Positions 1,469 through 51,888 are shown, numbered from the stretch's first letter. The stretch is DNA of 53,535 nucleotides from Fistulifera solaris (GCA_030295235.1 AP026134.1:1302001-1355535), one strand, 5' to 3'. A program made the numbers and translations. Notes: generated by a model not told the origin, from the letters alone.

Positions 1469-3376
1469 CTAGATTGTCGACCAGTCATTGTTTGCTTTTC
1501 CCCAGGTTTCGAAAAACCTTCTCGACCTTGGTGTCATCTTGTTCGCCACGGCCGCAGGAAATTCAAATAGCTTCGGAGTCTTCAATTCGCTCTTGATCGC
1601 GGCTTGAATTTCAATTTCAATTTCTTCCACCGGATGTGGTGTGGCACGTTTAAGGATCGATCCACGTTTCACACATTGTCGGAGATTTGAAACGTACGAC
1701 TCAGCGACAGATCTCATTGTACTTGTATCTATTACCGTTGCCGTTTGAACCGGTTCCCCACTAGTTGCTTGTGTTTGAGCGTTTCTAGCCGCAATCAAGT
1801 GTTGAACGAAACTAGCCCGTGCATCTTGTGGGCCATGAATCTTTTCCGGGTCTAGCGCCTCGTGCTTTTCCTGGCTTTGAGTTGGCGCTAGGGCCGTTAA
1901 ACTCTCGGCTAAGCATTCGATTTGCGCTTTTACTTCCTGTAGTCCTTGCATTGTCTTAGTCTCTGCCGTTCGAATTTCGTGTACAAACTCCTCTTTACTC
2001 ATTTCCAGCGCAGCATCGATTTCTGTACGAATTTGTTGGATCGCTTCTTCTCTCAAATACTGGATTGTCGGGTCTGTGTTTTCAATGTCTCGATTCATAC
2101 GGGCCGAATTAGCAACCGGGTTCATCTCCTCGGTTCTCTCCGTCCGAGCTACGTATCGTCGCTCAAAGGTAGTGATTTCGTCTCTTTCCTGTACTGTATC
2201 GGTGGCAGAAAGGTTATTAGCATAATGGAAATTCGCTGTTTCATTCCGCAGATCCGGGCACTCCTGAGTCATTTTGAATGAGTCAAAAGTATTCAAGTCG
2301 TCGTTGACTTTTTGATGTGCTTCAGAGTTTCTCCTTGTGACAACGATGCAATCATCATGTGTTCCGTAGTGCTCTTGCAACGCGTTAGTCTCGAAAGCAT
2401 AATTTGAATCTGGATCGATATGTGCAGCCCCTCGTCGGTTTTCGTCCTCTTTCAGAGCAGTAACGGCCTCGGTAAGTATTTGGATAACCAGGTTCCGTGG
2501 AAACGTCACTTTGAAGATACTCATGCTAAGATCTACGTTTGTAATGACTCCCTGCATCAATCCAACGATATTCATCGGCATCCGAAAGTGAAAAATCTCC
2601 GCATTTTCCGCATCATGATTCCCTTGCGATGTTTTTTTTCTCAACAGCAGGATTTGATAAACTCGAAACTGAAATATCTTTCGTCTCATGTACCGCAGAG
2701 GGTTCCAGAAAGGAAGAGTCGATTGGTATGTGGTTTACAAATGGCGATTTGTGATGTTGCGTCGGAGATGATCCCCAAAAATCTGCTGGAGTTGGACGTC
2801 CCCAAACATCGTTGGCCATGAGATAAGCTCCATCCTGCGGTATTTGATACTCTGCGCCGTGTCCAATTTTCGTAAGATCCTCTCGATATGGATCTATTCT
2901 ACGTGCCTGTCGAAAGAAATCTGGATCAGGTGCCGATCCCAACAAGTCCGAAGCTCTTCCGATCCGAGGAAATTCCATGGTATCCTTTGACGAGCAAGTA
3001 ATCTCCTCTTCAGTCGCCTTGCCATCTGAATTTGATGTAGAAAAACGATGCAGCGCTTCTGTAATGATCACATCCACGACTGACTGCGGTAACTCCCATG
3101 GTAAAAGGGATTCTCTGGAGGAATCGACTCCAGCAACATTCGTTTTACGAGGTGATTTGGCAGAGATATTGATACAGACTGTCCCTCTTCTTTTTGCTCT
3201 AAGGCATCTAACGGCTGAAACTTTACGAACACAGGATCCGGTGATGCAAATAATCTTAAAGACGAATGAAACCGGATTTGAAGTTTGTTTTGTTGTTTGA
3301 CCGATCGATTGAGGGAAAGAGGTGTCACCCAAGCCCCGACGGAGGCAAGGAAGAACCCTGAAATTGAGGTCCTCAT
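1469..3376 (-). CDS. Orphan protein with signal peptide + GA|W presequence and a coiled-coil region; joined across 2 frameshifts
   Basis: ATG 3376 gives MRTSISGFFLASVGA|WVTPLS. Overlapping ORFs 3068-3376, 2613-3332 and 1469-2689 join at ~3075 and at the T8 run 2632-2639. Confidence 0.55.
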
Positions 3377-3894
3377 TGCACTTCTTCTTAAGTCACAGAC
3401 GAAGGTAGAGGAAATAAAATAGAAAATCGTTACGACGCGTTTTAGTTTGAAGATCGGTTTCCCGCATCTCAGATGAGAAATAAAAAATGTGCATCAATCA
3501 TCGCATCACATAAAGACACAAATACTAGAGGCAGGTGTTTTTGAGTTTTCGCATCCGTGATCGCATGATTTATTGTTTCTCCCTTCAAATGTACCTGGTA
3601 GCGGTACTCATTTGCCGTCGGATCGCGATTGAGGAAAAGATTCTTCTGTCTAGGACGCAAAGTGTATTATTTTAGCGTTTTCACGCATGAAGTACAGTCA
3701 CGATTCGTCGTGAGGACTATGACTGATTTTCATTTTCCGCAGCTACTATCACGCCTATTACTTGTTGAAAGAAGATCCAATTATCCCTTAGACCTAATCT
3801 CTGGCTTCACCATTTCTCTATCCGTTACTAAGCTTGTCTTTGACTGCTAAAATTCGTTGGGAACCTCGTCGGACTACCTTCGTCACCACCTCCC

Positions 3895-4305
3895 TTAGAA
3901 GCAGATGTCAAAGAGACCTCCGCCTCCAGCCGAGGGTTTCGAAACAGTCAAAGTAAGTTTTTGCTGACCACCCGTGCAATGACCACCTCCATAGACAGAG
4001 CAGCCATAATAGTATGTATTGCCTTCAGACAATCCCGTCAACTCGCAAGTGCCATCTGACACTTGCGCACAGATCTCAGTTGCCCCAGTAAAGTCGCAGT
4101 TATCGTGGGCAGTTTTATCCGGAAACTGCACCACATTGTGTGAACCAGTCCAAGTAAGCGTCACCGGCAAATTGGCGCTTGAAACAGTTTTTGTTTTTGC
4201 AACGCCGTCGTTCGACCACGGAATGTTGATGGCAGCAAGTGAAGGTGCGGTTGCCATCCAGGTTGTCAAGACGAACACAGATAGACTATTGGAAGTTATC
4301 TTCAT
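3895..4305 (-). CDS. Secreted phytocyanin/plastocyanin-like blue copper protein
   Basis: Signal peptide; HNV His ligand, CDF Cys, and YYYGCSVYGGGHCTGGQQKL, the C...H...Q/M loop typical of phytocyanins. Confidence 0.8.
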   Translation of the reverse strand: MKITSNSLSVFVLTTWMATAPSLAAINIPWSNDGVAKTKTVSSANLPVTLTWTGSHNVVQFPDKTAHDNCDFTGATEICAQVSDGTCELTGLSEGNTYYYGCSVYGGGHCTGGQQKLTLTVSKPSAGGGGLFDICF

Positions 4306-6287: not shown

Positions 6288-7491
6288 ATGGAACGGCGAC
6301 GCAGTAATGACAACGGTACTTTATCTCAGTCAAAGTACAGAGAGCCTGAGTTATCGAATCCTGATTTCGAACTGGATCCTCGGAATGCTCGGCGATTAAT
6401 CCGTGCTGCTGAAAAGACATTGCCACCGGCTATTCTCAAAGCTGACGCATCATCTGGTAGTTACAGGCGACAGGATATCAAGGTTGGAAAAGTTCTAGGT
6501 GTCGGTGGCTTCGGTCACGTAAGCGAAGTTCTTTCCATGAAAGGTTCGAACGATATGTTGGTCATGAAGACACTTGTTCCGCATAAAAACGCGGAGCATG
6601 CGTTGTTTGCCTGTCATCACATCGCGATGGAAAAGTATATCTTAAGTCAATTGGATCATCCCAATATTATCCGTCTCCGTGGAAGCAACAAAGGTGGGCT
6701 GAGTGCCATCGCCGAGACGGCTCGAATGGACGCTTGTTTCTTGCTTCTAGATCGTCTACCAGAAACGCTGTCGGATCGCATTGAGCATTGGCAGCGACAA
6801 CAGGCAAAACCGAAACGCCGACGAAGTTTAACTGAATCACTTTCCGCGTTGGTAATTTCGAGAAAGAGCTTTGCGCAAGATCCGGACGTCTTTCGCGAAA
6901 AACTAAGCATCATGATTCAAATTGCCGCAGCGTTGGAATATCTTCATTCTAAGCGCATCATTCTCAGGGATCTAAAACCGGTAAGCAATTTTTTAATACG
7001 TCAGGATCATGAGATTATCTTGTATTCGTTTGTCTAAATTTCTTTGCCGGCCGGAAAAGGACAATGTTGGATTCGATATGAAGGAACGACGCGTCGTCAA
7101 GCTCTTTGACTTTGGAATGGCGGAGCCTCTCCCTGAAAATGTTGACTTGGAAAAAACGCACGATTTGGCCGGCAGAGTGGGGACAACACGATATATGGCG
7201 ACAGAAGTGCTTCGAGAGGAACCATACAACGTCAAGGCAGATGTTTTCTCATTTTCTTTGGTTGTTTGGGAAGTCTTAACTTTGGAACGTCCCCATGATC
7301 GTTCCAGTCCTGATGCTTCTGTATTCGGAGAGCGCCCGAAGATTCCCAAAGAATGGCCTTCGGCCTTGAAACGAATTCTCCAACGCGGTTGGTCCGACGA
7401 TCTTGAGACGCGGCCTTCGATGATCGAATTTAGATTGGTTCTCGAAGACTTGAAACGTCAAGCTGATGAAGAATCTGATGACGGCTTTTAA
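6288..7491 (+). CDS. Ser/Thr (TKL-like) protein kinase, 2 exons (6288-6980, 7060-7491)
   Basis: LGVGGFGHV loop, VMK lysine, RDLKP|DNVGF joined across a GTAAGC...AG intron (6981-7059), DFG, GTTRYMATE, DVFSF. Confidence 0.92.
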
Positions 7492-7604
7492 GTAGTGCAT
7501 AGTTTTAGGTAGAAAACAACACAGCAGCTAACAAAAAAATTACTACCTTTTTCTTTTAAATAATGCTGAGATGCAGAGCTAATTAATCTTTACTCCGTAT
7601 CTTG

Positions 7605-8297
7605 TTACCAGGCTCGCTGACCTTGGGACGCCGCTACGTAGACTGGCTCGGGCATAGGAACTCCCTGCGGTTCAGAGCCTTTAGTTTGCGATTGAGGGCC
7701 TTTGTAGGGCAAGAAGTTGGGACCTTTCAACTTGTTTTGACTCTCTTGCTTCGACGAAGCCGAAAGAGCATCCAAGTAACTCAGATACATGGCAGCTGCT
7801 TCCGCCTTTGACTCGATTGGTTCTCCTTGCGCAGGAGGCAAGCTAGCAAACACTTCTTGTTTACGGCGTTCCGCAATCGAGGGTGTCCCGATGAGCCAGT
7901 CATCTCCTCTTTTGTGAATGACAGGTGCATACGTTCCGATCTGAACAGTCTCCAGTACGTCGGCAGGTAGCAACCATGTCGGAGGTTTGTAGGGAGAATC
8001 GGCCATAGCCAAAAGCCGCAACATGTTGGTAACGGCGATGGAAGGATAAATTCGAGGAGGGCCGTCGTGCGTTCGACGTCCATCTTTATCGGATCGGCCG
8101 ATTTTGTGAGAGGTAATAACATCGGCGGGATAGAAAGAAGGATTCTTGGAAGATCTCTCATAGTCGAAATTGTCTCCTACTTTGAGGAATTCATGTAGCG
8201 CGAACGATTTCTGCGACGATCTGATTTCCTGATTCATAAATGCAGCAACGCTGCTCAGAGACGACACGGCGAACGCGGTGAAAAGAAGTCGGAACAT
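7605..8297 (-). CDS. Orphan putative plastid-targeted protein (AA|F) with PADV, SYLDAL and KGPNFLPYKGPQ motifs
   Basis: MFRLLFTAFAVSSLSSVAA|FMNQ from ATG 8297; intact ORF to 7605. Confidence 0.75.
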   Translation of the reverse strand: MFRLLFTAFAVSSLSSVAAFMNQEIRSSQKSFALHEFLKVGDNFDYERSSKNPSFYPADVITSHKIGRSDKDGRRTHDGPPRIYPSIAVTNMLRLLAMADSPYKPPTWLLPADVLETVQIGTYAPVIHKRGDDWLIGTPSIAERRKQEVFASLPPAQGEPIESKAEAAAMYLSYLDALSASSKQESQNKLKGPNFLPYKGPQSQTKGSEPQGVPMPEPVYVAASQGQRAW

Positions 8298-8650: not shown

Positions 8651-8722
8651 TGACGTAATTCAATTATTGAAATTGATTCGGTCGCTGAAAACGACTTGAT
8701 TCAAATGCGTGACGTGTGACGT
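8651..8722. promoter_or_regulatory. Cluster of TGACGT (CRE/ATF-like) elements upstream of the gene starting at 8297
   Basis: TGACGTAA at 8651, TGACGT at 8710 and 8717. Confidence 0.4.
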
Positions 8723-8935: not shown

Positions 8936-11164
8936 TCATTGCCGATCCTGCAAGAGTAATTCTTTCAGAGTAAACAGGGCCATCTCTCGAACCTTTGTTG
9001 ATGTTAACTTCTTTTTTTCTGTCTCTTCTTCTCCACTATCTGCTGTTTTGACTATTGACAGACCGATATCTTGTGTTTCGCTTGCGTCCATCTGTTCGCA
9101 CGTATCCGACGGTTCGCCAAGGTCGTTGCTTGAACTGTCAGCATCTTCAACGGCACTTTCAGTGGGTTCAGCCTCAGTGACTCCGAAAAGTATGTCCAAA
9201 AGTTTGTCTGTTGCAGGTGCGGGATTTGCACTCTTTCCGTTGGAGGGACTTGTCACATCATCAACCGTGCCTTCCCCGTTGTGACCCTCCCCATCGATGA
9301 ATGGTGTTCCGTCTACCCCATTTAGGTTAGCAAGAACAGAAGAAGGATCGGCAAGATATTGACTGACCGTTTCGTCCGTCAACTGATCGGAACCATCGGG
9401 GCTCCCAGTAAACAAGTACTGCAGAAGCTCCTTAGTTGATGATTTGGCATTTATGGGAGCCATGGATCCAATAGATGTCTCATCCCAAACGTTCGAAGAG
9501 CCTTGGGTTTCAAAAGCAAATTGGATCTTGTTCGCATGGTCGGATTCTGATACTAAACTTGGTTGAGCAACATTAGAAGTAGAATCGAGTTGGCCTTCCG
9601 GGTCGCCTTGATTATGGTCTCCGTTCAGGCGGACGCCTGAATTTAAATGCAGATGCTCGGAAATCGTTTCGTCGTCGGAATTCGTTAGCAATTTAGTTTG
9701 ATCAGTTTCCGTTGAAATCGCTTCTGCCTTGTCATCGAACGAAGCCAGGTCATGTACTCCATTAACGCTGGTTGGTTCCATCGTTTCCGATTCCACTACG
9801 GAACTTTCTACTACCGAAGGCTCAGAAAACGACAACTCTGTTATTTGAAGATCCGCACCTTTCTCAACCAGGTCTGTCTCTGCTAGTGGTGAACTCGTTA
9901 TTGTCTCAGAGCCGACCGCAGCGTTCTCCGATTCCAATGAAACTGGCTCTAACAAAGAGTCATTTGTCACTGCAACCACCAACGTATCTTCAACATCCGT
10001 TACTGATGAAATTGCTTCGTTTTCCACGTATCTAGGGCTTTCTCCGTCAATCTGGGCCGCCTCTTGAGCCGCATCAGAGCTGAGAGCGACAGAACCTTCA
10101 GTTATTTCCATTGGTGCTTGGTCAGAAATCATGTCCATTTGCGCTGTTTCTAGATCAATAGACTCTCCTACTTCACCAGTGACTGCAATAGATGTCGAAC
10201 GAAGACCTTGCTCATCATTTTCATGCAATAAATTGTCCTCGCTCGACTCCAGCAATGTGCTGTCCAATATCGCTTCAGTCTCGTCATAATTAAAAACCGA
10301 TGACTCTTCCTCTTGATGTGTACCGTTGACACCATTGATAGGCGGTTCTTCTTTAGCATCCTCTATGACTTGTGTTTCCGTGTTCTCCGTCGATGGCTTT
10401 CGAAATCCCTGCCGATTGCGTGCCTCTTCTTGCTCATTCATGCGATCACGCCAAAACTGTACCTGAATATCACCGACTACAGGTTGCTTCGAAAATGAGT
10501 TCCTTGTCGAAACCGCAGAGGCAGATACCGAGTCTCGTTGTTCCGAGAGAGTTTCCGTCGTAACAACGTCGCCTGCGTGTTCCTCGAGTTCAGCTTGGTC
10601 GCTTGCTGCCGACTCGGAACTTGTTTCCGGTAACTCTTGAGTGTTGTCTTCGCTTATGTTTGCATGAAAGATGGAATTACGTGCTTGTTCCGTTGAAAAC
10701 GCGGGTCGAAACCCCTTTTTATTCCGCTCTTCTTCTTGCGCCGTCATGCGGTCACGCCAAAATAGAATATTACGATCATCTACCGAGGTAATGGGCACTG
10801 AAGGACGCTGCGGAGCCGAAGGTCGAAACGCACTAGGATGAGTCGTTGGGGCGGGAGGCCTGGAAACACTCGTCGCAGCTGAAATTAAAAACAGGTCATC
10901 CTGATCGCTCGGCAAAGATGATACGGCAGTCGTATCTTCAGGAGGAGTTGGTGGAGCTGTAGACTGCAAAGGCTGCACGATAAACGGTTGTGCAGTAGTA
11001 GGTTCCCAAGAAGGCTTTTTGAATACATCTGCGGGCACGAGATAATCTGGATCGTTTACAGCAGACATTTTTACGGATCGAGCTGACATTCGATGCGGAC
11101 GAATAACCCACGCATCTGTTGCAGTGAACGCAAAGAATGATACTGTTACAAATCGAATAATCAT
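8936..11164 (-). CDS. Orphan acidic, disordered putative plastid-targeted protein (DA|W)
   Basis: MIIRFVTVSFFAFTATDA|WVIRPHRMSAR from ATG 11164; YLVPADVF; two FWRDRMxxQEExRNxxGFR copies; very rich in E/S/D. Confidence 0.78.
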   Translation of the reverse strand: MIIRFVTVSFFAFTATDAWVIRPHRMSARSVKMSAVNDPDYLVPADVFKKPSWEPTTAQPFIVQPLQSTAPPTPPEDTTAVSSLPSDQDDLFLISAATSVSRPPAPTTHPSAFRPSAPQRPSVPITSVDDRNILFWRDRMTAQEEERNKKGFRPAFSTEQARNSIFHANISEDNTQELPETSSESAASDQAELEEHAGDVVTTETLSEQRDSVSASAVSTRNSFSKQPVVGDIQVQFWRDRMNEQEEARNRQGFRKPSTENTETQVIEDAKEEPPINGVNGTHQEEESSVFNYDETEAILDSTLLESSEDNLLHENDEQGLRSTSIAVTGEVGESIDLETAQMDMISDQAPMEITEGSVALSSDAAQEAAQIDGESPRYVENEAISSVTDVEDTLVVAVTNDSLLEPVSLESENAAVGSETITSSPLAETDLVEKGADLQITELSFSEPSVVESSVVESETMEPTSVNGVHDLASFDDKAEAISTETDQTKLLTNSDDETISEHLHLNSGVRLNGDHNQGDPEGQLDSTSNVAQPSLVSESDHANKIQFAFETQGSSNVWDETSIGSMAPINAKSSTKELLQYLFTGSPDGSDQLTDETVSQYLADPSSVLANLNGVDGTPFIDGEGHNGEGTVDDVTSPSNGKSANPAPATDKLLDILFGVTEAEPTESAVEDADSSSNDLGEPSDTCEQMDASETQDIGLSIVKTADSGEEETEKKKLTSTKVREMALFTLKELLLQDRQ

Positions 11165-11335: not shown

Positions 11336-11357
11336 TGACGTCATGCTGCAAACGTCA
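11336..11357. promoter_or_regulatory. Palindromic TGACGTCA plus an ACGTCA half-site upstream of the gene starting at 11164
   Basis: TGACGTCA at 11336-11343; ACGTCA at 11352-11357. Confidence 0.4.
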
Positions 11358-11576: not shown

Positions 11577-12335
11577 TTAGTTTCTTCCTTTTCGAGATGG
11601 GGATGAATTGCTTTTCTTCCGACGACTCGATTTTGCTTTTGTAGATGTGTCCTTGGTATCCACGGATTGCTTTTTAGATTTCCGGTGTGCATCCCTTCTT
11701 GCCGCTTCATCCCAGCGAAGCATTTCTTCTTTTGAAAAGCTTCTTTCTCTGCCAGACGCTCGAGACTCTTTTGTTCAACGCGTCGAGCTGCTTCGGCCCA
11801 TCGATCCATTTCGGCTTGTTGAAATGCAACTTGCTCGGGAGTTAGTTCACGTGGTTTCGCTGTAGGAGTCACTGCAGCTACTGGTAGATAATCGACCGGG
11901 TAACTCACTGGAGGGGGAAATGGTTTGACGCCAACCACGAACGCCGACTTCGTCAGCCGGATGACCTCGTGTGACTGTTGATGCTGGTACTACTACTCGT
12001 GGTGTCGCAGGGACGGGTGGCGAAATAATCTTTTCTCGTTCCAGTGATGCAGAAGGGTCAATGAGTTCTCCACGTGCCGTAAAAGGTTCTGTTGTCGATT
12101 GCGTGCTGTCTGGTGAAGAAGAGCGACTAGCTGCTGTGGGATTACTGTCATAATTTGAATAAGTGATGCCGCTTACTGGTTCACCTGTGCGACTAATTAC
12201 ATCGGCTGGCAGGAAGTGTGAATCGGAATGGAAGATACGAGTGCTCCGCCGATTCGTTAATTGATTGGAGATAATCCAGGCGCTTGTTGTTGGCAGACAA
12301 CAGATCGCTGTGAGTGATGCCGATCGAACTTTCAT
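11577..12335 (-). CDS. Orphan putative plastid-targeted protein (SA|W); joined across 2 frameshifts
   Basis: MKVRSASLTAICCLPTTSA|WIISN..FLPADVISR. A shift at ~11935 leads into GVKPFPPP..EMDRWAEAARR; a shift at ~11730 gives EEMLRWDEAARRDAHRK, ending at TAA 11577. Confidence 0.6.
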
Positions 12336-13431
12336 TTCTGTTCTACTTCTTGGTCAGATGATTCGCTAACAATTTCTTATTCTTTTCAATGTTTCGTCCC
12401 TTATTGCATCGATTGCAGGAGATAACAAGAAGTAGATGTTATATTCTTGAGATGTTTGCCCTCTTCAGTTCAAGTCACTGTTTTTCTGCGGTTGCCTTTC
12501 CTTCTTGGCATTTTCATTTTTTTGCAGACGTCAGTGAGCACCTTGTTCGATAGTAGATACCCTTCCGGGACTGGATTTCCGGTGAGGAGTCGTCGTCGTC
12601 GTCGTCGTCGGGATACACTAATTATGAAAGGAGTCCTAGGTCCTCGCAACGCTGTTGCTTGACATTCCATTATCACTTTTTTAACAGTAACATTCAACAT
12701 CTCGAACTTGAAACGTCATGAGATTAAAGATGCAATGCGTCAAATGGCTACGTAAGATCTACGTTGGTCTAGTAGGGAAATTCATCGACGGAGGAGGACC
12801 CGGACATTCTTAAGTTTCGTCTTCATCAAGTTTCAGTTCTTCTTGCCACAATTGCCTTCGCAACTGTCCCTGATCTATTTACTTTCCATCAAACAGAAGT
12901 ACTCAACGCCAAATCAAACTTCAACATAAGAAGGTTGAAAGGTGCAACGCTTGAAATGTCTACGTGATTTTGACGTAGCCGCCGTAGGAAATAAATCGAT
13001 TTAGGATTTACCCGGATATGGCTTGTGTTTCACCTAGTCGAGGATTTTTAGGAACGGGTCAAAGAAACAACGGTACCGCGTACCTGTTAAAATGTACTAA
13101 GCAATGTTTTGCGTTAAGGTCGGGTTGAATATTTGTTCGCAGCACGCTATGTTATACTTCCTACTAAACGACTAAATAATCTGTATGCACGAACACGTCA
13201 AAGTATGGGGCATCTTTTTCATTCCTATGGTGACAATCATAAGTAACATATATTGATTCGGCTACTTAGTCATTTCCAATGGCAACAACCGAGAGAGTAC
13301 ATAGAGTTTGCCTTGTCTTTGTTCTTGCTAGTGGCCGAGGATGCCTGTGCCCATTACCAATCGTATCAACTACATACACTCTTTGTCATTCGCGTCACGG
13401 AAATTGTGTGACAGTATTTTCCATAATCATT

Positions 13432-14592
13432 TTATTCCAGCTTCTCACCATCGGAAGGTGTCTCATCGCTCCATTCTAATCCATTGAGATCAACGCCTTC
13501 GTCATCTGGCCGATGGACGAAAAAGTCGCCTTTCTTTGCTCTCCGAAGTGCATCACGTTTCGCAGCTTCCTCCCACCGTGCAAGCTCGCCGTCAATAAAA
13601 CTTTTTTTGTCCGACAACGGTTCATTTTCAAGGGCACCTTCGTTCTTAACCTCTGTCTCGCCGTCTCGCATCGACGCATTCAGTTCACTGTCAATTTCAA
13701 TTACCTCATTTTCGATAATTTCATTTTTATTTTTAGCTGTGTCTTCTGATGTTGTTGCCGAACCGCTGTCATTAATGGTCGAAAACGTTTCTTGTTGCTG
13801 GAAGAGTTCCTTTTTGGCCTGTTCGACTTGCAAATTCCTCTGCGATTTTTCTTCCGCGAACTCGGCAATATTACCGTGCAGAATATGCTGCCCGGCATCT
13901 AAAAATGACATCATTTGGTGCTCCGGATACGGAAGAGGAATGTCTGGTATCGTAGTTATGCTTGTCGTCGATACTATCGGTAAAGAATCAACCTCGAGGA
14001 CCGGAGTGTCTGGCTCTTTGGGGAGTGTCGGTGGTTGTAGTTGAGGTGTGAAAGACGGCATAATGGCTTCTGGCGGCGAAGTGCTGGGTGGAAGGGACTC
14101 GCCGGATGAAGTGGGATAGTACGGAATGCGAATTTTTGTGGATACGTCAGGATGCATCACGTTGGAATTAGAAGGCACCGGCGAAAATGATGACAACGCC
14201 GGCTTCGGAGATAGATTGCTAGAGGGTGAAGACCATGAAGGACGCCCCGGTGAAGGAGACGAAAGCGCTGACTTGCGAGATAGCATGGACCCCGGTTCAT
14301 TGTAGTACTGATTTGTTGAATATTGTTGTGACGATGAAGAAGGCACTTTTTCTGGTTTGAGTGTTGAAGACCAGGACGCCGGATAGTAGCCCGAACGATG
14401 CGTTCTAGAAAGATTCTCGAGCCATTGCGGACTACCCAAGATTTCCGGCGCCAAATCTGAGTAAAGGTCATCTTGCGCTCCCGATGCACCGAACTGTCGT
14501 GCCGTTGACGAACGTCGACTATGAGAATGCGTCACCCATGCTTCTGACACAGAAAGCAGGCATACAGAGATTGCAGAAGCTCGCAAGACCAT
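13432..14592 (-). CDS. Orphan Ser/Pro-rich putative plastid-targeted protein (EA|W)
   Basis: MVLRASAISVCLLSVSEA|WVTHSHSRRSS; HPDVSTKIRI; ELARWEEAAKRDALRR; intact 386-aa ORF. Confidence 0.8.
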   Translation of the reverse strand: MVLRASAISVCLLSVSEAWVTHSHSRRSSTARQFGASGAQDDLYSDLAPEILGSPQWLENLSRTHRSGYYPASWSSTLKPEKVPSSSSQQYSTNQYYNEPGSMLSRKSALSSPSPGRPSWSSPSSNLSPKPALSSFSPVPSNSNVMHPDVSTKIRIPYYPTSSGESLPPSTSPPEAIMPSFTPQLQPPTLPKEPDTPVLEVDSLPIVSTTSITTIPDIPLPYPEHQMMSFLDAGQHILHGNIAEFAEEKSQRNLQVEQAKKELFQQQETFSTINDSGSATTSEDTAKNKNEIIENEVIEIDSELNASMRDGETEVKNEGALENEPLSDKKSFIDGELARWEEAAKRDALRRAKKGDFFVHRPDDEGVDLNGLEWSDETPSDGEKLE

Positions 14593-14943: not shown

Positions 14944-15039
14944 TTACGTCATTGCCACGTCACATGCAATGGCTCGAGTAAGGACCAAAGAGAAGGAAGA
15001 GAGGGTGCGACTTGAACTTCACTGCCGAACTGCACGTCA
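14944..15039. promoter_or_regulatory. ACGTCA elements upstream of the gene starting at 14592
   Basis: TTACGTCAT at 14944, CCACGTCA at 14955, ACGTCA at 15034. Confidence 0.4.
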
Positions 15040-15507: not shown

Positions 15508-18144
15508 TTATTCGTTCTTGCTTTCCTTGGCCTTTTTCTTCGCCAATTCAGCCAGCCCGTTGCCATCGTCGACGATTTCTGCGTCAATTATGCCGTTTAT
15601 TGACTTGCCCTTTAATAAAGCCTCTTTTTTCTTTTTGATCTCCTCTAACTTCGCCTTCTGCTTTTGAAGAGCTGCTTCGGCTTCTTTCTTTATTTCTGCT
15701 TCTTCGCGAGCTATTTCCGCCAAGATTGCGGCTTCTTTCTCGGCCGCTTCCTTCCTTATGCGCGCTTCTGCTTGAAGTCTTGCCGCCTCTTTCAAAGCAG
15801 TATCAATTTTATTTTTACTGTCATCTGTAACGCCCTCCGCCGTTTCCTTCGTTTCGGGTTCGTTGTCTGTCTTTTTCTGTTTCGCCTTTTCCGCCCAACG
15901 AGCTTGTTCTGCTAGTCGCTCTTCCTCAGCTTTGCGCGCTTCTTCTGCCCATCGAGCTTGTTCCGCTTTACGCGCTTCTTCGGCTTTCTTTGATTCTTTC
16001 AACCATCGAGCCTGTTCCGCTTGTCGAGCCTCTTCGGCTTTGCGAGATTCTTCTGCCCAACGAAGTTGCTCCGCTTGGCGGGCTTCCTCTGCTTTTCGGG
16101 CTTCTTCCAGCCAACGTGCATGTTCTGCTTTGCGTGCTTCTTCTGCCCAACGAGCTTGTTCAGCTATTCGATTCTCCTCTGCTTTCCGAGCCTCTTTTTC
16201 CATGCGGGCTATTTCTGCGAGACGGGCTTCTTCTGCTCTACGGGCCTGTTCGACAAGTCGCGCTTCTTCAGCTTTTCGTGCTTCTTCTGCTAAGCGGGCT
16301 TCCTCTGCTAGTCGTGCTTGCTCGGCAGTTTTCCGAGCCTCTTCGGCGAGTCGGGCGTCTTCGGCCAAACGAGCTACTTCTGATAGGCGAGCTTCCTCTG
16401 CTAAACGGGCCTGCATAATTCTGCGCTCTTCTTCAGCTTTTCTGGTCTCTTCCGCAAGTCGCATTTCCTCGGCGATACGAGCCTCCTCAGCCAAACGCGC
16501 TTGTTCAGCCAATCTTGCTTCTTCTGCTAACTGGGCTTCCTCTGCAAGTCGTGCTTGCTCCGCCAAACGAGCTTCTTCCGCTATACGTGCCTCTTCCGCC
16601 AATCGAGCTTCTTCCGCTTTACGCGCCTCTTCCGCCAATCGAGCTTCTTCCGCTTTACGCGCCTCTTCCGCCAATCGTGCTTCTTCCGCTTTACGTGCCT
16701 CTTCCGCTAAACGTGCTTCTTCCGCTAAACGTGCCTCTTCCGCCAATCGCGCTTCTTCCGCTAAACGTGCCTCTTCCGCCAATCGAGCTTCTTCCGCTTT
16801 ACGCGCCTCTTCCGCCAATCGTGCTTCTTCCGCTTTACGTGCCTCTTCCGCCAAACGTGCTTCTTCCGCTAAACGAGCTTCTTCGGCAATTTGTGCTTCC
16901 TCTGCTTTGCGAGCCTCTTCTGCGAGACGTGCTTCCTCGAGACGAAGTGCCTCTTCTTCTTTCCGCGCTTTCTCCACGAGTTGTCTTGCCTCCTGTTCTG
17001 CTTTCTGGAGCTCCTCGTACTGCTTCTGAGCAAGTTTCGCAGCTTCTATGGCCTTTAACGTAGCCTGGTGCGCCGCCTCAGCCGCTTCGGCAGCTTTTTT
17101 TGCAGCTTCCGCCTCCTTTGTGGATTTTGTACTAGCCAATTTTGCAGCCGCTGACATTTTTGACTGAATCGTCTCAGCACCATTTATCGACCCCTTGATG
17201 ATTTTGGAAGTAATTCGAATCTCGTCTTCGACATTCTTGCCAATGTAGTCATCGTACTGATCCGGGCTTGCAGCTGGCCATTTCCCGGTCCCCGTAGGCT
17301 TTGATGCAATCAAGGGCTTATTTCCCGGCATATCCGGTGCTCCCAAGGCCTCACTCCCCAACTGTCGTACCCAAGTTTGACGCGGAGCAGGTGGAGGCTG
17401 AACACGAATTTTGTTCATGACATCTGGTTGAATGTCATCTGCAGGGGTTGCTGTGGAATAAGACCAGCTAGACGTCCACACACTTTTTCCCATGTTTTTA
17501 CGACTCTCCATGTATTGTTCTCTAGCAGCTTCGGCAGCTGCATCACTGTCGAGTGCATCCGTGCCCAATTCGTTGACCCAGGTTTTCTTCCTAGGTTTTT
17601 CTTCAGCAATTCGAATACCTTTGGTGATATCCGTTCCAATTTCGTCGTCGTTGTGTGATTTTGTATGCCATGAGCTTGACCAAACCGTTTTTGGCTCTGT
17701 TTTCGTTCGAATCACACCTTGTTCGTCGACTTTATACGATTGTGTCGGTGTCGAGGGCGCAGGCTGATCAAACTTCCCTGGTACTTGTTGAGTGATGCGT
17801 ATTTTATTGAGAACTTCTGAGCTGAATTCATTATCAAAGGAGGAACTGGACGGCGTCGGTAGAGGCTTGATTGGCGCCCCATTCTTTGGCTTTGAGTTTT
17901 CTTCTGTACTCGAATCAATTCGAATACTCCTAAGATTCTCTTTACTAATGTAATCTTTATCATTTGAAGAGGCTGACCACGATGCTCTCGGCGATTCCTG
18001 ATGCAAAAGAGCACGCGTTAAAGGCTTTGTATTCGTCGGACGTTGCAGCGAAGCAGGAATAAAAGCAGCTGCTCCTGTGAAAGCTTGACTGGAAGCGAGT
18101 AGTGCAGCAACAACAGCAGCCGAGTATTTGAATGAAAGTCCCAT
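15508..18144 (-). CDS. Orphan putative plastid-targeted protein with N-terminal xDxxxxIRI repeats and a long (AEEAR[LK])n helix
   Basis: MGLSFKYSAAVVAALLASSQA|FTGAAA|FIP from ATG 18144; intact ORF. Confidence 0.82.
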   Translation of the reverse strand: MGLSFKYSAAVVAALLASSQAFTGAAAFIPASLQRPTNTKPLTRALLHQESPRASWSASSNDKDYISKENLRSIRIDSSTEENSKPKNGAPIKPLPTPSSSSFDNEFSSEVLNKIRITQQVPGKFDQPAPSTPTQSYKVDEQGVIRTKTEPKTVWSSSWHTKSHNDDEIGTDITKGIRIAEEKPRKKTWVNELGTDALDSDAAAEAAREQYMESRKNMGKSVWTSSWSYSTATPADDIQPDVMNKIRVQPPPAPRQTWVRQLGSEALGAPDMPGNKPLIASKPTGTGKWPAASPDQYDDYIGKNVEDEIRITSKIIKGSINGAETIQSKMSAAAKLASTKSTKEAEAAKKAAEAAEAAHQATLKAIEAAKLAQKQYEELQKAEQEARQLVEKARKEEEALRLEEARLAEEARKAEEAQIAEEARLAEEARLAEEARKAEEARLAEEARKAEEARLAEEARLAEEARLAEEARLAEEARLAEEARKAEEARLAEEARKAEEARLAEEARKAEEARLAEEARIAEEARLAEQARLAEEAQLAEEARLAEQARLAEEARIAEEMRLAEETRKAEEERRIMQARLAEEARLSEVARLAEDARLAEEARKTAEQARLAEEARLAEEARKAEEARLVEQARRAEEARLAEIARMEKEARKAEENRIAEQARWAEEARKAEHARWLEEARKAEEARQAEQLRWAEESRKAEEARQAEQARWLKESKKAEEARKAEQARWAEEARKAEEERLAEQARWAEKAKQKKTDNEPETKETAEGVTDDSKNKIDTALKEAARLQAEARIRKEAAEKEAAILAEIAREEAEIKKEAEAALQKQKAKLEEIKKKKEALLKGKSINGIIDAEIVDDGNGLAELAKKKAKESKNE
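15880..16960 (-). repeat. Coding 18-bp tandem repeat encoding AEEAR[L/K/I], shifting to AEQARW toward the C-terminus
   Basis: Tandem units such as gcctcttccgccaatcga / gcttcttccgctttacgc on the + strand. Confidence 0.92.
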
Positions 18145-18488
18145 TTTGCACTTGCTACGCTGTTTCTGCTTATTTGATCTTATGAATCTCAAAGAGAAGA
18201 GCAGCGTCAATTCCAATTATCGTAAAGTGATATTTATTTGCTTTAAAGCGGAACATCAACAACGTTCGGTGGTTGTGATGTTCGGGTGTCGCGGCGAGAA
18301 ATTTGAAGCTTGAAGCGAAGACAACCTTTACGCTGCGACATTGCGGTTCGCTGAATCCACGAAAAGGCTTGATTACATAGGAACTTTTCCTCTATCTATC
18401 CATGTATTATGGAAACTGTTACATTCCACAGATGCACTCTACTATCGACGCTGGTAGATAAATCATACTCTCTGCGAGATACTAATTA

Positions 18489-18500
18489 TGACGTACGTCA
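18489..18500. promoter_or_regulatory. 12-bp perfect palindrome TGACGTACGTCA (two inverted TGACGT half-sites)
   Basis: Seen directly in the divergent intergenic region between the 18144(-) gene and UBA3. Confidence 0.4.
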
Positions 18501-21715: not shown

Positions 21716-23142
21716 ATGTACATCCGAAAGTTCGCGTTCCTGCTTCTAAGTGCATCGAGCACCTCGGCTGCGTTTGTAGTGAGTCAACCCTCATTCGCCG
21801 ATTCTTCACGTACATCGACAGCACAAAACATGTACACCGATGGTTTCCTTATGCCCCAGGATGTCATCTCTTGGAGAGATCAGCAAACTACGTCGTGCTA
21901 TACTGCTCCTGTGTATGCCGATCCGAACAACTCTGTGCGTGCACCTCCCTCACCGTGGCCTGAATCGCGCGGCGATCGGCCAACCCCTGCATTCTTTGAA
22001 GAAACAAAGAAACAAGAGGACAGAAAGATCCAAATGTTTGACTATTGGATGCAACCTTCATCTTACATGGAAGAGCTGAAGAATTCTGGCCGAAGATCTG
22101 AGTCACAATGGACTCCAGATGCCACGCCTCCGTTCTTTACAACTGGTTCTTTGAGCACGCCCGAGTCTCGATGGGCACGTGTGGATCCGGGCTTTACGCA
22201 ATCCACTCCTTCGTTTAATCAGTACACATCTTCTTCTTACGCTACTGGGCGATGGACTTCGATTTATGAATCAGATGCGATGAAATACCGTCAGATGCAC
22301 AATTACATGGATGTTGAGGTTCAACAAGCACCTCAAGAGGCCGTCGTGCCCGTACCTGTCATTGAGGAAACACCTATCGCTTTGAATGAGCCGGATATTC
22401 GAGTGGAACAAACAACGGTAGAAGAAGTGTCTGCTTCAGTCAGCGAACCAGAACCAGTCTACCTTTCCGAGCCATTTCTGGAACAAATCACGGCACCGTG
22501 GAGCCAGCCAGATCCTGCGGTCGAGACGGGCGCTATTATTGAGGATATAGTAATGGAAATGCCCAGTTCAGAGCCAGTGAGTGCGATCTCAAAGGATCTT
22601 GCTGAAAAGATATCTGCGTACGAGAAAAAGATTGAAGAAATGCGAGAAGTCGAAGCGGAGTTTGTTGATATTTTGAACCAGTCACGCAGTCGCTACGTCA
22701 ATGACTTGAATGACATATTAACAGTCGAATCTAGTTCGGATTACGTCGAAGAAGAAGAGTCCACAAGTGAGACCCAAAAGAAGGCGCACAACTATCTAGC
22801 GGCGTGGAAGAGCATCCTGGTGCGGAGACTTCCGTTGATACGGCTGCCACAACCACTGCCAGCTACACCAATTCCATCGATGTCTTGGAAGCAGAACTAG
22901 GCGACGAGATCATGAGTACAATCCGTCGTGAATCTCATGTTAACACACCAGATGCTTACTTGAGCGCGGGGTCGAGCATGTACCAAAGCAGCTATTATGG
23001 TAGCCCAGGCCCGCAATATTCCACTGCAGGACGATCGGGTCCCAACGTTTACCATAATGCCTATCGAAACGCGGCACCCCATTACTCAAACGCGTACGAT
23101 CGCCCTCTGAGCGAACGAAATCACTGGGACCGTATCTATTAA
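21716..23142 (+). CDS. Orphan putative plastid-targeted protein (AA|F); one frameshift at ~22800
   Basis: MYIRKFAFLLLSASSTSAA|FVVSQP; FLMPQDVISW; ORF 21716-22900 overlaps ORF 22804-23142 (LGDEIMSTIRR, Tyr-rich tail). Confidence 0.7.
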
Positions 23143-47200: not shown

Positions 47201-49823
47201 AAGCGGAAGTGTCTTGGTTGCCACTGGAATCAGAAGACGCTTCATCGGGTACATAATCCGCTGGATAGGATGAAGGAAAAATTGTGGATTTTCCCAAAGT
47301 CTGACTCATAACATCGAATTTCCAAGGATCCCAGGTCTCTGCTCTTTCGAATGCGCCTCGACTTGGAGAAGGCGTTCTCGCCCCGAGAGAAGTCTCTAGC
47401 CCCGATCCCGCAAAATCTTCAAGCGTGGACGATGGAAACTGTGAAGATTTTCCTAGAGTCTGACTCATTACATCGAATTTCCAAGGATCCCACGTTTCTG
47501 CTCTATCATAGGCATTAGTAGAGCGCTGACTGGAACTAGCACCACCACCGTCCGCCGAGTAACCCTGTTTCGCGTCGCCCGTCTCTGAATAAGAATCCGA
47601 TCCAGGAAAAGTGTAGTCCCAACCTTGATCATCCTGCTGAGTGTCGAGTATCACATTCTCCGATTCAGAACCGCCCCCTTCACCAGACATCTTTGACTTC
47701 GCTAACTGATTCACAAAAGAACCAAAAGTTACTTGGTGGTTTTCTTGGGTCCCACTCCTCAACGACTGAATCGCTCCTTATCTCGTCATCGACTATGACA
47801 GTTGGATTGGAAGCCGTACCGCCTTGCACTGGCTCCTTGGGTAAGCTATCATTCGCAACCGCTTCCACGTATGCGCCAAACTCACTAGCGACCTTCGGAG
47901 TGCCGTCCGCTTTAGTTTCTTCTACCGGCATGCTTCCTTTTGCTACTTCCTTTACAAAGAGCCAAACTCCTCTGCGGGCTTCGCGGACCCACCACCAGAA
48001 TCGGGCATCATATCCTTTGCGATTTGTTGTACAAATGAGCCGAAATTTGTCGGTGGCTTAGTTGGATCGAATCCATTGCTGCTTAGAACTGTGTCGGACT
48101 TATAAGAGCTGGGTGGACTAAACGTGTCTTTTGGTAATAGAGGAGCAGGAGGTGATCCAGGCTCAAATGACGGACTTCCCGGAGCAAGACTATCGTTCGG
48201 CAGTAATGGCGAAGGAGGTGAGCAGGCTTTAAAGGCTGGAATGGTCGTGCCGGTATTCACATCGGGAACAAGTGGAGCTGGTGGAGATCCAGGCTCAAAC
48301 TTGGGACTAACTAATGAAGCACTTTCTTTCGGTAGCAACGGCGCAGGAGGGGGGCCGGGCTCAAAGGCTACGCTGTAAGGTGTAAAGTTGTCGTCGGGCA
48401 TGAGCGGCGTGGTACGAGACGAGGACACGACCGGAAAAGGGCGTGCGGCGTCTACGTCAATATCATCGAGCGGTTTAGAAGCTTCGAGATCCGCTGATGG
48501 GAAAGGAGCAATTGGAGAAAGTGTGACATTCTCATCTGAGGTACCATTAAGTGTGTCGAATCGCATAGTCTCTTTGCTGGAAATCATGCTAATGGCCGAA
48601 AATGCAGCGTCCTCTGCACTTGTGTTAGCCAAACTGAAAGTTTCCTTTATAGCAGACTCAAAACTTTGACCAAGAGAAGTAAGGTTCGACTTGCCCTCAA
48701 TAGTCGGCACAGAAGTTGGCCGTTTTCGATCCGACTTGGCGGGTTCATCCAACCACGTCACCTTCATCTTTGGTATCTTCTTGACTAGCCGCTTCGACGT
48801 ATTGTTCTCCTCTTCCCCTAGCTTATTTGGCTGCGATTTAGAAGTCTCCAATACAGGTGTTGTTCTGTTCGATAGCGTAACGTCTATCGACGCCGATGAC
48901 GATGACCTCTCTTTTCTTGAAATAGTTGAATTGCCTGGAACGACGTCCGTTGCATTTGATGCGTTCGCTAATCCGGCATCCACAGCTATAGTGGTATTTC
49001 TCGCAAGAAGACCCGTGGACTCTTTCGACGGAAAGGGAGAATCTGTGTCGACCGGGTCGGCAGTTTCTAAAGTCGCGTTGTCCGTTGAAAGTGATAAATA
49101 AGCCTGCACCAAGGAATCATTTGAACCTACGGTAGACACAAGAGTCCTGGTCAAATTAGTGGAAAGCCCTTTCTCGAGTTGGTTCTCTTGCAACGAGTTA
49201 GCCGATAATTTCGATTTCGTTGCAGTCGGCTGCGTCGCATTCAAATCGCCAAAAAATCCTGCCAAAGCTCTCGCCACCGATGATATCGGTTTCTTGTCAA
49301 CACCAGATTTTGTGTCATTATATCTTGGACTGTTCGTATTGTTCAGTAAATAACTGTTTGGACCAGTGGCTTCGTTTTCGAGAACGGTGCTGTTGGTGTT
49401 TTCTTTGTGAATGATGCCTTTAGTCTCTGTTGTGGCTGTTGCGTTTCTTTCGCTGGATTCACCTGGATTCCGCTGTGCGAAAAGCGAAGTTTTCCACCGT
49501 CGACCTTCTATCATTCTGGCGCTTTGTCGCTTATTTAAGCGAACCCAGGGAAGTTGTCCGACTACTTTTGCCTCATCATGTTTCTCTGAAGTCGATTGTT
49601 GGCTGTTCACTTTTCTGCGTTTCCCGATCGCTCGACTAAGATCCTCATCTTCAATGTTGATATCTCTCTTGTTAGTGTTATCCGGAAGGGGAATGAAATG
49701 TGGTTGTAGGGCGCCGCAATAGAGATGGTGCAAAGGGACGGTGACCCATCCCTCCGCATAGATCACAAGATGAATAAAAAGGATAGGAAGACAGTAAATC
49801 GCTCGTTTCCGTGTTTGTCGCAT
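44253..49823 (-). CDS. Very large (~1,850 aa if joined) orphan disordered multi-repeat protein, signal + EG|W; about 4 frameshifts
   Basis: MRQTRKRAIYCLPILFIHLVIYAEG|WVT. The FGSFVxxxAK repeat spans the breaks at ~47950 and ~47725; further joins at ~45810 and ~45560. The 3' part could be a separate gene. Confidence 0.6.
46560..47515 (-). repeat. Six coding repeats AETWDPWKFDV[ML]SQTLGKSTxFPSS separated by Ser-rich spacers
   Basis: Six copies counted in ORF 45768-47762. Confidence 0.92.
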
Positions 49824-50648
49824 TCTTTGTGTGAGTTTATATCAACAGTTTGAAGTCAAGTAGCAGTAAAGCCTCATGTCCTCCTTTGTCTGAATGAAAA
49901 GGCTTCGCACTGTATTCATTCGTTTTTGTAATGTTGCGATTGCTAGTACCTCGCGCCATCACGATCACGATGCAACACGAAAAACGAGACACGAGACGAC
50001 ACGAGCGCTTCGAACTCGGCGAGCAGATCTTTCGTCTGAGTTGCAGTTCTACACTTCGGTGATATACAGTTAGCAGCAGGTAAGAACAGATGGCTGTCTT
50101 GATTTGTACCGTGAGTACCACACCCTGTACTTCAAATTGTATAGTCAGCGATCGGATCGCCATTTTGAATATTTTCCTTGCTTTTAAGTAAACGTGTGTC
50201 CAACGCCAGATCATGGATTGTATTATGGCCAACCGAAAATTATCTCTTATATACTAGTAAGCGTCTGAATATGAAATATCGCTGCTGGCAGACAGCACAA
50301 TCCCGAAAGGACTGATGTCATCGATGTGTCTCTCCGTAGAATTTACGCGCGTTTGTCGTAGGGAAAGAATAGAAACACAAGGTGACGTGGCCTGTCCGCC
50401 GCTCATGCAAATTGCAACGTTCAAGTCTTAGTACACTAAGACTGTATATACCAGTAACATGCATTGCGTCCGTCGCTCTCTTTTCTCGTACGTTTCATTC
50501 AGCTCGCAAATCCTCCGACAAACCATCACAAAACGACGCAGATCGACAATCAACAACTTTTAAAAACAAACGACCGCTTTGTCCCTCCATTGCAATAGCA
50601 ACCGAACTTCTTGCTTGATATTATTTTAGAAAGGCAGCCTCGCTAATA

Positions 50649-51888
50649 ATGACATCAATATCTTTGAAACGCCTTCCTACGAGCCGTCGATGGCTCGTAG
50701 CGCATCACCTCCTTTTCTCGGCTGTCGCACCAATCAACGCGTGGATTGTACCCCCTCCTGTCTTTGATCCTAGAAATCCTATGCCTCCGCAATATTCTTT
50801 CTTTCCGGATGAACCCATGGGTGCTCGAAATAGCGGTCTCTACGGTCGAATAGGGCAGGACGAGCCATTTGTACACCTAATGCAAGACTGGAAGCCTTCG
50901 GTCGGACCTTTCTTTAACAACCCGGAACCCCGAGAATGGAGAGAACCCAACAACGGACATTATCAAGCACCAGAGCACATGCCTTCGTCATCTCCCTACT
51001 ACCGCGAGCATCAAGTTCAGCAGCCGCTCGGTCCGAATGCTTGGGGAAACCCGCTGCCGGAAGCTATGGTTCTTCATTTGCGCCCGATGGGACTTTTGCC
51101 GGGCGGAGACGTGAGGTCGCAGTCCCCAAATAATGACTCCTGGAATACACAACGTCCGAACAAGTCTCCTTGGCCGGAATGCGTCGCCTCATTCTTGGCG
51201 AATAGTGGGGTAAATCCTGCTAGTTCGCAGCAGTGGATGAATGAAGAGCAAAAACAGACCGTCACGACAGGCCACCGAATATGATGGAAGAGCCTCCGCC
51301 AAGGACTCTGGGATATGGTCATTGGCGAACATTCGATCCTCGCTCCCCTCTTGGCTACCAGTCAAATTACCCACGATCTCAATGGCGCGCTCGTGGCGAG
51401 CCTATGTTCAATGATGCACCATGGCAGGCCGTCGCGATATTATGACTTCGCACTACGCTTCTGTGGGTGCCGATGAGCCGTGGGGAAAGTCTTGGAATAT
51501 GCAACACGAGAAAACTTCAATTTGGGAAGGACCAAGTCATTCGTCATCCTCGTTTGGTTCTGGCTCTTTCTACAGTCAATCGGTGCATACGACCCAAACT
51601 TCGTTTGATGGAAGTTCGAGATCTGGTTCTTCTACAAACTTCGACAAGCAGTCAGGTAAAACTTCCAGTAAAGTTATCGGGCGAATTCTATGTGGAGTCA
51701 GAAGCAATAAAAGACAAAGGAATGGTGAAGGCGGCTGCATTTACCCAACGAACTGTTGCTCCAACCAATGGTGTTGTTGGGATGCCCTCTACCTTCAAAG
51801 CTACCTTGACACCCTTTCTCCAAGAAGTTTCTCCGCGGGGCGATGGAAGGGTCCAAATTTTATGCCATACAAAGGCCCACAACATTAG
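50649..51888 (+). CDS. Orphan Pro/Trp-rich putative plastid-targeted protein (NA|W), several frameshifts; ends SYLDTLS..KGPNFMPYKGPQH
   Basis: LLFSAVAPINA|WIVPPP; ORF pieces 50649-51284, 51421-51888 and 51467-51892; C-terminus matches the gene at 7605-8297. Confidence 0.55.

Follow-up and report, generated by a model that had tools for sequence, protein, structure and literature searches.

The 11 genes that crowd the end of a chromosome of the diatom Fistulifera solaris raise the question of whether their products belong together and, if so, where they act; F. solaris is a raphid pennate diatom. The window analysed, 53,535 nucleotides (nt) of one strand (GCA_030295235.1, AP026134.1:1302001-1355535), closes with 50 copies of AGGGTT (53234..53535) and is the terminal ~53 kb of an F. 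solaris chromosome. The telomere repeat at the window end therefore places the cluster in a subtelomeric position, at most ~53 kb from the chromosome end. An earlier note on this DNA had described 11 genes between 1469 and 51888 as a possible parts list of orphan, disordered, putatively plastid-targeted proteins. The genes are named here by their start codons: g3376, g8297, g11164, g12335, g14592, g18144, and g49823 on the minus strand, and g21716, g23517, g25669, and g50649 on the plus strand. Judged from their sequences, nine or ten of the 11 genes belong to a single lineage-restricted family, as tandem paralogues that have diverged from one another. The clustering thus stands, but what lies here is mainly a tandem paralogue family and not a set of unrelated proteins brought together. 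The family core consists of two arms, five genes on the minus strand (8297 to 18144) facing three on the plus strand (21716 to 25669), with a spliced E1-like gene between them. The common plan comprises a putative signal peptide of the endoplasmic reticulum (ER) type, an aromatic residue (mostly in the family-specific form A↓W[VI], the arrow marking the predicted cleavage site), 20–30 residues that are nearly free of acidic side chains, and a body with neither a known domain nor a confident fold.

We examined the N-termini of all 11 proteins with the cleavage sites placed by hand. The signal-peptide-like start followed by W or F that had been reported for every gene was confirmed on the open reading frames (ORFs). 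A hydrophobic core (Kyte-Doolittle 9-mer maximum 1.99–3.06) and a small residue at −1 were present in 11/11, and the residue at −3 was small or aliphatic in 10/11, the exception being Q in g25669. The +1 residue was W in eight proteins and F in three, and +2 was V or I in nine. Transit scores were computed with the ASAFind matrix from the paper supplement (166 reference plastid proteins), for which the high-confidence cut-off is 2. The +1 column of this matrix implies 89.8% F and 4.2% W, and the binomial P of at least eight W among 11 at the latter frequency is 1.5e-9. This excess of W points to common descent, which is a simpler explanation than 11 independent events. Acidic residues were scarce at +1 to +20 (11 × 20 residues), where six D/E were seen against 34 expected from the composition of the bodies (Poisson P 4e-9). 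The net charge of these 20 residues lay between 0 and +4; in 8/11 proteins an acidic residue first appeared at +19 to +32. A low content of acidic residues after the cleavage site, together with a net positive charge and hydroxylated residues, is the signature of transit peptides (PMC4329603), and the supplement of the same paper (sd7) records PtOEE1 F18W:GFP (green fluorescent protein) as plastid, so that W at +1 is competent for import. In F. solaris itself, GFP is delivered to the ER by the signal sequence of DOAP1, whose predicted A19↓Q20 cleavage leaves Q in the +1 position (PMC4113804). Eight of the 11 post-cleavage stretches lay above the 75th percentile of random 19-mers scored with the ASAFind matrix, and a transit score above 2 was reached by the three F genes only (4.24, 4.49, and 4.96), the first of these being g8297 despite two acidic residues in its scored region. 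The highest score among the W genes was that of g14592 (1.98). These results indicate that the proposed plastid targeting of the ASAFAP type is supported by the aromatic +1 residue of all 11 proteins and by the depletion of D/E, but by the transit score for only three of them.

Four public sequencing runs (X1–X4) were aligned to positions 7500–27499 of the window. Run X1 covered the whole of this stretch at ~20x and is genomic-DNA-like. Single-base differences between X1 and the window were recorded at 15 places, and the 12 of them that are listed here all lie in homopolymer runs (11729, 11913, 18604, 18726, 22775, 23375, 23497, 24134, 24522, 25643, 26356, and 27023). Homopolymer indel errors in the window split real genes into overlapping ORFs, and correction on the basis of X1 merged the short ORFs into long ones: g12335 extends to 11577 (252 aa; corrected at 11913 and 11729), g21716 to 23142 (475 aa; 22775), g23517 to 25170 (551 aa; 24134 and 24522), and g25669 to 28366 (899 aa; 26356 and 27023). 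The corrected g25669 is letter-for-letter identical to P0003, the GenBank hypothetical protein FisN_23Lh011 [Fistulifera solaris]. The impression that the bodies are mostly unalignable was therefore partly due to frame breaks, and long ORFs appear once these are repaired.

The largest member of the family is g25669 (25669..28366, plus strand, GA↓WVS), which carries 21 motifs of the ADV..V.I type. Its presequence is followed by the conserved blocks LPQGILG and PWKGSGAVGF, by dispersed motif copies 45–60 residues apart, and then by a tandem array of 14 units (27021..28042, plus strand). Each unit consists of an 11-residue core, SADV[LQ]T[PS]VKIH, and a variable spacer of 14 residues, so that the units follow each other at steps of 25 residues (one of 26) with a period of 75 nt. 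The 75-nt units are only ~75% alike as DNA, which indicates that the array is not a recent amplification. Pairwise codon differences in the core were synonymous throughout at S (65 synonymous/0 non-synonymous), K (45/0), I (13/0), and H (49/0), 172/0 in sum, whereas those in the spacer were mostly non-synonymous (e.g., 2/76 and 5/82). Selection holds the motif core of the array and leaves the spacer free. A relative of 723 aa, P0005, is 43% identical to P0003 with large indels in the spacers, and conservation between the two is confined to islands: one at the presequence junction, those formed by the motif copies, one with the sequence DIVKPFDKSN..PIEPILVD..YKNDLDDII, and KWKSDFDPNRWAP at the C-terminus. 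P0005 also retains QGAWV and the acid-free stretch behind it. With the strict pattern, six motif copies were found in P0005 against 18 in g25669, which indicates that the long array expanded in the Fistulifera lineage. The AlphaFold2 model of g25669 (a shallow alignment of four sequences) has a mean predicted local distance difference test (pLDDT) value of 31, with 897 of 899 residues below 50, and the ESM Atlas model of g18144 has a mean pLDDT of 0.48. These values agree with the disorder that had been supposed for the proteins, for the two that were modelled. Sticker-type repeats had been supposed as well; g25669 is a sticker-and-spacer tandem protein, but the strict tandem array is found in this member only.

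We compared 477 stop-to-stop ORFs all against all with BLASTP to examine the links between the genes. The closest paralogue of g25669 is g23517, which matched it in the N-terminal (32% over 94 aa, E 6e-5) and C-terminal (E 0.005) parts. The C-terminus of g8297 matched an ORF at 51421 that belongs to g50649 in KGPNF[LM]PYKGPQ (60% over 35 aa, E 4e-7), that of g14592 matched the ORF joined to g12335 by the correction in RW[ED]EAA[KR]RDA (E 1.6e-4), and g21716 is linked to g25669 through NDL[DN]DI[IL]TV (BLASTP or shuffle support). A broad ADV..V.I hidden Markov model (HMM), built only from the diverged copies in g25669 and P0005, gave 12.5 bits for g8297 and 6.8 bits for the N-terminus of g18144, and 0 of 200 shuffles reached either value. 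With this model g14592 was marginal (7 of 200 shuffles, the best of 12 control proteins standing at 14 of 200), and g11164, g21716, g23517, and g49823 gave no score. A narrow HMM, for which 15 sequences were used (the 14 tandem units and one degenerate flanking unit), found only the N-terminal copies of g25669 itself and, weakly, g8297, and is too specific. Regular expressions gave the following counts, which are optimistic because the expressions were written after inspection of the data. [DEN][VIL]...[VI].[IV] occurred 21 times in g25669 (0.47 expected), four times in the N-terminus of g18144 (0.08 expected, 0 of 1000 shuffles), and once each in g8297 and g14592 (chance-level in 2 of 12 controls). 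P[AQ][DG][VI][IFLV] was found in 6/11 members against 1/12 controls, with one copy per carrier starting at residues 43–57. The RW.E[AE]A[RK][RK]-type motif was found twice in g12335, once in g14592, five times in g18144, and, as FWRDRM, twice in g11164. No supported motif link was found for g49823 or g3376, and g11164 has marginal links only. Nine genes thus appear to form one network through links of varying strength, which g49823 and g3376 join by their N-termini only. The common vocabulary of short motifs asserted in the earlier note has statistical support for some links but is weak for others, marginal for g11164, and absent from g49823.

The family is narrow in its distribution. Pfam assigned no family to the 11 proteins except for low-complexity matches on the E/A/R/K repeat of g18144, and relatives were scarce: one among 2989 scored candidates for g21716 and four among 8000 for g25669. 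A g25669 profile searched against 1.84 billion representative proteins gave nine matches, of which two were real clusters. The other seven were C2H2 zinc-finger or other repeat proteins that matched through linkers resembling H.KIH..EKP; they contain no copy of the motif and were rejected as spurious. The VKIHAEEKPRQ of the array resembles the C2H2 linker H.RIHTGEKPY and draws in the zinc-finger proteins P0006 and P0009–P0012 (E 1e-13 to 1e-4). The repeat contains no Cys/His ligand pattern, and the likeness to zinc fingers is therefore that of a look-alike. Residues 1–345 of g18144 had no homologue at E ≤ 0.01 among 8000 scored candidates, in a search that did not return the query itself, probably because of low-complexity swamping. 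The ESM Atlas yielded no usable feature match, with all structure rows below a TM value of 0.3, and none of the 283 pattern matches from a metagenome scan with a sequence alignment was confirmed. The orphan status of the proteins was thereby upheld, with no Pfam family beyond low-complexity matches and few relatives in a narrow clade. The name FisN_23Lh was found in no paper, and the titles and abstracts among the matches listed for Fistulifera with pyrenoid and for proteomics or signal peptides do not describe these genes. The proteins are deposited only as hypothetical, and lineage-specific proteins of the sticker-spacer kind are already known. What is new, as far as literature searches show, is a subtelomeric array of paralogues with a W-type presequence, a small motif set, and one 21-valent member.

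The regions upstream of the genes were also compared. In a k-mer scan, ATGACGT was found in 6/11 family regions against 0/12 control regions; the scan of 7-mers as a whole was not significant, since the commonest 7-mer occurred in 6/11 regions and the permutation mean was 6.1. The element TGACGY occurred 19 times in the 11 upstream windows of 450 nt against 6.0 expected, a count reached by 0 of 5000 random draws, and seven times in 14 control windows. Each of five consecutive genes, g8297 to g18144, has exactly three sites in its upstream region: TGACGT at 8651..8722 for g8297, TGACGT on both strands at 11336..11357 for g11164, TGACGY at 12528..12742 for g12335, TGACGT at 14946..15039 for g14592, and TGACGY on both strands at 18204..18500 for g18144. 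TGACGT/C is a generic bZIP site, and we therefore read this pattern as a hint that g8297 to g18144 are under shared control and not as a sign of control by CO2. In Phaeodactylum, PtbZIP11 is reported to target TGACGT/C in genes of the CO2-concentrating mechanism that are induced by low CO2 (PMC11142338). A gene for a bZIP transcription factor is located at 302-949 (plus strand), in the same window as the genes with clustered TGACGY sites.

In regard to transcription, a contig of run X3 skips 130 nt with GT..AG ends in the E1-like gene, and removal of these nucleotides opens a frame of 468 codons that holds the 448-aa E1-like ORF, which indicates that run X3 contains cDNA. Contigs of X2–X4 lie on g11164, g14592 (13222-14842, with no joint), and g18144. 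Low or absent cover by these runs (e.g., at 21.5–27.5 kb) is uninformative on expression. The cDNA-like contigs at 14422-14842 (g14592) and 15498-16084 (g18144) differ from the window at 9–21 positions per 300–590 nt and could therefore be transcripts of another, nearly identical copy, either an allele or one in the other subgenome. For g21716 there is a second copy, P0001, with identity at 417 of 451 aligned residues (92%).

On these results we give an even chance to the reading that the genes form a family of tandem paralogues whose products are probably plastid-imported and act as a multivalent scaffold and its clients. The presequence would be a bipartite plastid-import signal, and the mature proteins would in that case act in the plastid stroma. 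The repeated motifs would be stickers that all bind the same folded partner, probably an oligomer, so that g25669 with its 21 copies would be a cross-linking scaffold. Its paralogues carry the ADV..V.I-type motif 1–5 times and RW.E[AE]A[RK][RK] 1–5 times, and the low-valency g18144, g14592, g8297, g12335, and g11164 may join this structure as clients or adaptors. We leave g49823 out of this model as a probable secreted glycoprotein. EPYC1 of Chlamydomonas and the proteins that have its Rubisco-binding motif likewise combine a high-valency scaffold with several unrelated-looking proteins through a common motif, which targets proteins to, and organises, one condensate (bioRxiv 10.1101/2023.10.26.564148). 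That system belongs to the green lineage and uses a helical motif of the W[RK]xxL type, the strict form of which occurs here once, at chance level, in g50649; unlike the genes of the EPYC1 system, those described here are physically clustered paralogues. If the scaffold reading is true, a plastid-addressed 21-valent protein together with motif-sharing and apparently co-regulated neighbours constitutes a concrete and cheap set of candidates in a host that has expressed GFP fusions (PMC4113804).

Several observations weigh against the scaffold reading. The eight W genes have transit scores of 1.14–1.98, which ASAFind classifies as plastid with low confidence, a class with a specificity of 0.82 against 0.99 for the high-confidence class (PMC4329603). 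The post-cleavage stretches of g8297, g49823, and g50649 are ordinary, at about the 50th percentile, so their transit signature is weak. Moreover, because the genes are paralogues, their N-termini count as one inherited observation and not as eleven. In an unbiased best ungapped 10-mer test on the proteins without their signal peptides, only 4 of 55 pairs scored above every one of 40 local shuffles, another five had z values of 2.1–3.0, and the remainder were at chance; the narrow HMM found nothing in g18144 or g14592, and the motif expressions were defined post hoc. No structured element was found in the repeats of g25669 in the AlphaFold2 model. Known Rubisco linkers are basic; the mature part of g25669 has an isoelectric point (pI) of 8.9, and most members are strongly acidic (pI 4.1–5.4), with values of 4.1–5.3 for g11164, g14592, g18144, g21716, and g23517. 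TGACGY is not enriched across the window (66 sites against 58.8 expected) and was picked after the k-mer lead, and runs X2–X4 were labelled RNA by guess.

Of the competing explanations, the one that survives best is a secretory family, in which the proteins would pass from the ER to the cell surface, the mucilage, or the frustule and the motifs would serve the assembly of extracellular matrix or adhesion in a raphid diatom; we consider it unlikely, though a serious competitor. Diatom wall and trail proteins (silaffins, cingulins, silacidins, and trail proteins) have a signal peptide, low complexity, lineage-specific distribution, and repeats, and eukaryotes commonly have families of secreted proteins that are subtelomeric, evolve fast, and are rich in repeats. 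The low-confidence class of the eight W genes fits this explanation, as do the several secreted peptidases in the window and the neighbour g49823 (47952..49823, minus strand, 623 aa), which has a similar A/G↓WVT start (EG↓WVT) and looks secreted. In this protein 21 N-x-S/T sequons were counted where 7.8 are expected, a number reached by 0 of 500 shuffles. It also contains proline-rich FEPGSPPAPLLP repeats, and its post-cleavage stretch is without basic residues and is not transit-like; it shows no shared motif. Because of the sequon excess and the absence of a transit-like stretch, g49823 is probably a secreted N-glycoprotein that happens to start with G↓WVT, or else a very old offshoot of the family. 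The other ten proteins, however, have no excess of sequons, being at or below expectation and several of them under it. A stretch of 20–30 acid-free residues with a net positive charge in proteins that are otherwise acidic (six D/E against 34) would have no obvious reason if the proteins were secreted, and the three F genes score above the high-confidence cut-off. Lysine clusters and RXL propeptides are associated with biosilica proteins; a scan found one lysine-cluster-like match only, in g18144, and no consistent RXL propeptide motif was seen by eye. The genes thus differ from those of diatom wall and trail proteins in the aromatic +1 residue, the transit-like stretch, and the lack of sequon excess outside g49823. 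Even if the proteins were secreted, the array shows selection keeping short binding motifs while their surroundings and the gene copies turn over.

A narrower version of the scaffold reading places the proteins in the pyrenoid. In naviculoid diatoms, g25669 would take the functional place of PYCO1, as a 21-valent SADV[LQ]TPVKIH linker that cross-links Rubisco or ties it to the pyrenoid shell, with g18144, g14592, g8297, g12335, and g11164 as pyrenoid clients and the array switched by CO2/cAMP through TGACGT/C bZIP elements like PtCA1 and PtBST1. We regard this specific assignment as improbable. PYCO1 (Phatr3_J49957), the Rubisco linker of the Phaeodactylum tricornutum pyrenoid, likewise comes from a diatom, is predicted to have a transit peptide, and is mostly disordered, with tandem repeats of short conserved stickers set apart by variable spacers; it is confined to its own lineage, and a BLAST search gave no homologue from any other alga (PMC10288592). 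Fast evolution of Rubisco linkers and pyrenoid scaffolds has left PYCO1 without a homologue outside Phaeodactylum (PMC10288592). The pyrenoid assignment fits this fact, the sticker-spacer architecture of g25669, and its spacing of 25 residues within the range of 20–120. Of the three FLIPPer linker criteria (Barrett et al. 2024, PMC11570498), g25669 shows two, a largely disordered chain and repeats 20–120 residues apart (25 here); the third, repeating structured elements, is not seen in its AlphaFold2 model. The period is 25 residues against ~80 in PYCO1, the motif copies number 21 against 5–6, and the pI is 8.9 against 10.03 (PMC10288592). Against the pyrenoid assignment stand the proteins that are not basic, the missing structured repeat element, and the absence of the PYCO1 motifs KWSP(R) and GTGYNP, which gave 0 matches in the 11 proteins. 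If it were true, the array would be the first genomically clustered pyrenoid toolkit.

The last explanation, that the common vocabulary is a fading trace of tandem duplication with no common partner and with several genes dispensable or decaying, can draw on the subtelomeric location, the 51 of 55 pairs that do not rise above shuffles, the lack of homologues beyond a narrow clade, and the results of blastn, which found no match among the first 210 coding nt of the 11 genes and only three 12-nt matches (E 0.082) among their 400-nt upstream regions, but we hold it to be the least probable in view of the purifying selection on the core of the array, the motif blocks kept through spacer turnover in the 43%-identical P0005, the long ORFs that are intact once assembly errors are removed, the second copy of g21716 kept at 92% identity, and the cDNA-like contigs on three members.

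The other members of the family are as follows. On the minus strand, g8297 (7605..8297, 230 aa, AA↓F) carries the ADV..[VK]I motif twice (FYPADVITSHKIG and LLPADVLETVQIG) and ends with KGPNFLPYKGPQ, and g11164 (8936..11164, 742 aa, pI 4.1, DA↓WVI) has YLVPADVF at residue 43 and two copies of FWRDRM..QEE.RN..GFR at residues 135 and 237. The corrected g12335 (11577..12335, SA↓WII) contains HFLPADVI and two RW.EAAR motifs, and g14592 (13432..14592, 386 aa, EA↓WVT) contains SW[ST]S twice, HPDVSTKIRI, and RWEEAAKRDA. In the product of g18144 (15508..18144, 878 aa, QA↓F), an N-terminal motif third is followed by the E/A/R/K repeat. The N-terminal third (17194-17967) has four [DEN][VI]...IR[IV] motifs and one variant form, with an element of the W[ST]S type in front of each, and the long repeat occupies 15775-17112 of the window and holds five RW.[EK]E[AS][RK]K motifs. 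On the plus strand, g21716 (21716..23142, AA↓FVV) contains FLMPQDVI and RYVNDLNDILTVE and has a Y-rich C-terminus, and g23517 (23517..25170, YA↓WIL) contains LSGELLPQGI and PQWNGAPAEGFREAPSI and ends with VKMYGKR.

Two outlying genes, g3376 and g50649, are doubtful members of the family. Their frame breaks, to 1469 and 51888, respectively, were deduced from frame continuity alone. g3376 (1469..3376, minus strand, GA↓WVT) has its first D/E at +32 and consists of three frame pieces (3376-3071, ~3060-2617, and 2689-1469). No statistically supported shared motif was found in it, and its YLMANDVW resembles the LPADV motif only weakly. g50649 (50649..51888, plus strand, NA↓WIV) has a body rich in P/W/Y/N in three frame pieces and the C-terminal KGPNFMPYKGPQH in common with g8297.

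Ordinary genes lie among the members of the family, encoding the bZIP factor, a protein kinase, an aldose 1-epimerase, a cation-efflux transporter, TMEM65, and peptidases of the S8, S1, and S10 families. The kinase (6288-7037 and 7009-7491) and the S10 peptidase (38782-39468 and 39423-40532) have a split appearance similar to that of the genes merged by the correction. The E1-like gene between the two arms is of the ThiF/E1 type (VLVVGAGGLGCEILKDLAL...; 18660-20363, plus strand) and has, according to the spliced X3 contig, one 130-nt GT..AG intron at 18934-19063 or 18935-19064, the cut being ambiguous by one base. Upstream of g18144, at 18172-18838, the depth of X1 rises to ~950, compared with ~20 elsewhere, and numerous loose ends occur at 18631-18715; a dispersed element of high copy number probably accounts for this peak.

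Two paralogous ORFs in inverted orientation, at 29649-30131 (minus strand) and 32482-33084 (plus strand), are 46% identical over 96 aa (E 2e-28) and lie on either side of the S8 peptidase gene; both contain hydrophobic stretches and are without a Pfam family. Two large low-complexity ORFs at 44253-45683 and 45768-47690, both on the minus strand, without a Pfam family, and not flagged in the earlier note, have pI values of 4.1 and 4.6, respectively. The latter is without a hydrophobic N-terminal core and has one P[AQ]DV-type match, and in the former a strongly hydrophobic stretch begins near residue 33. The telomere is preceded by tandem repeats of 18/36 nt (52516-52698), of 17 nt (52807-52951), and of the 7-nt unit CTCACTT, which is present in 40 copies (52951-53234).

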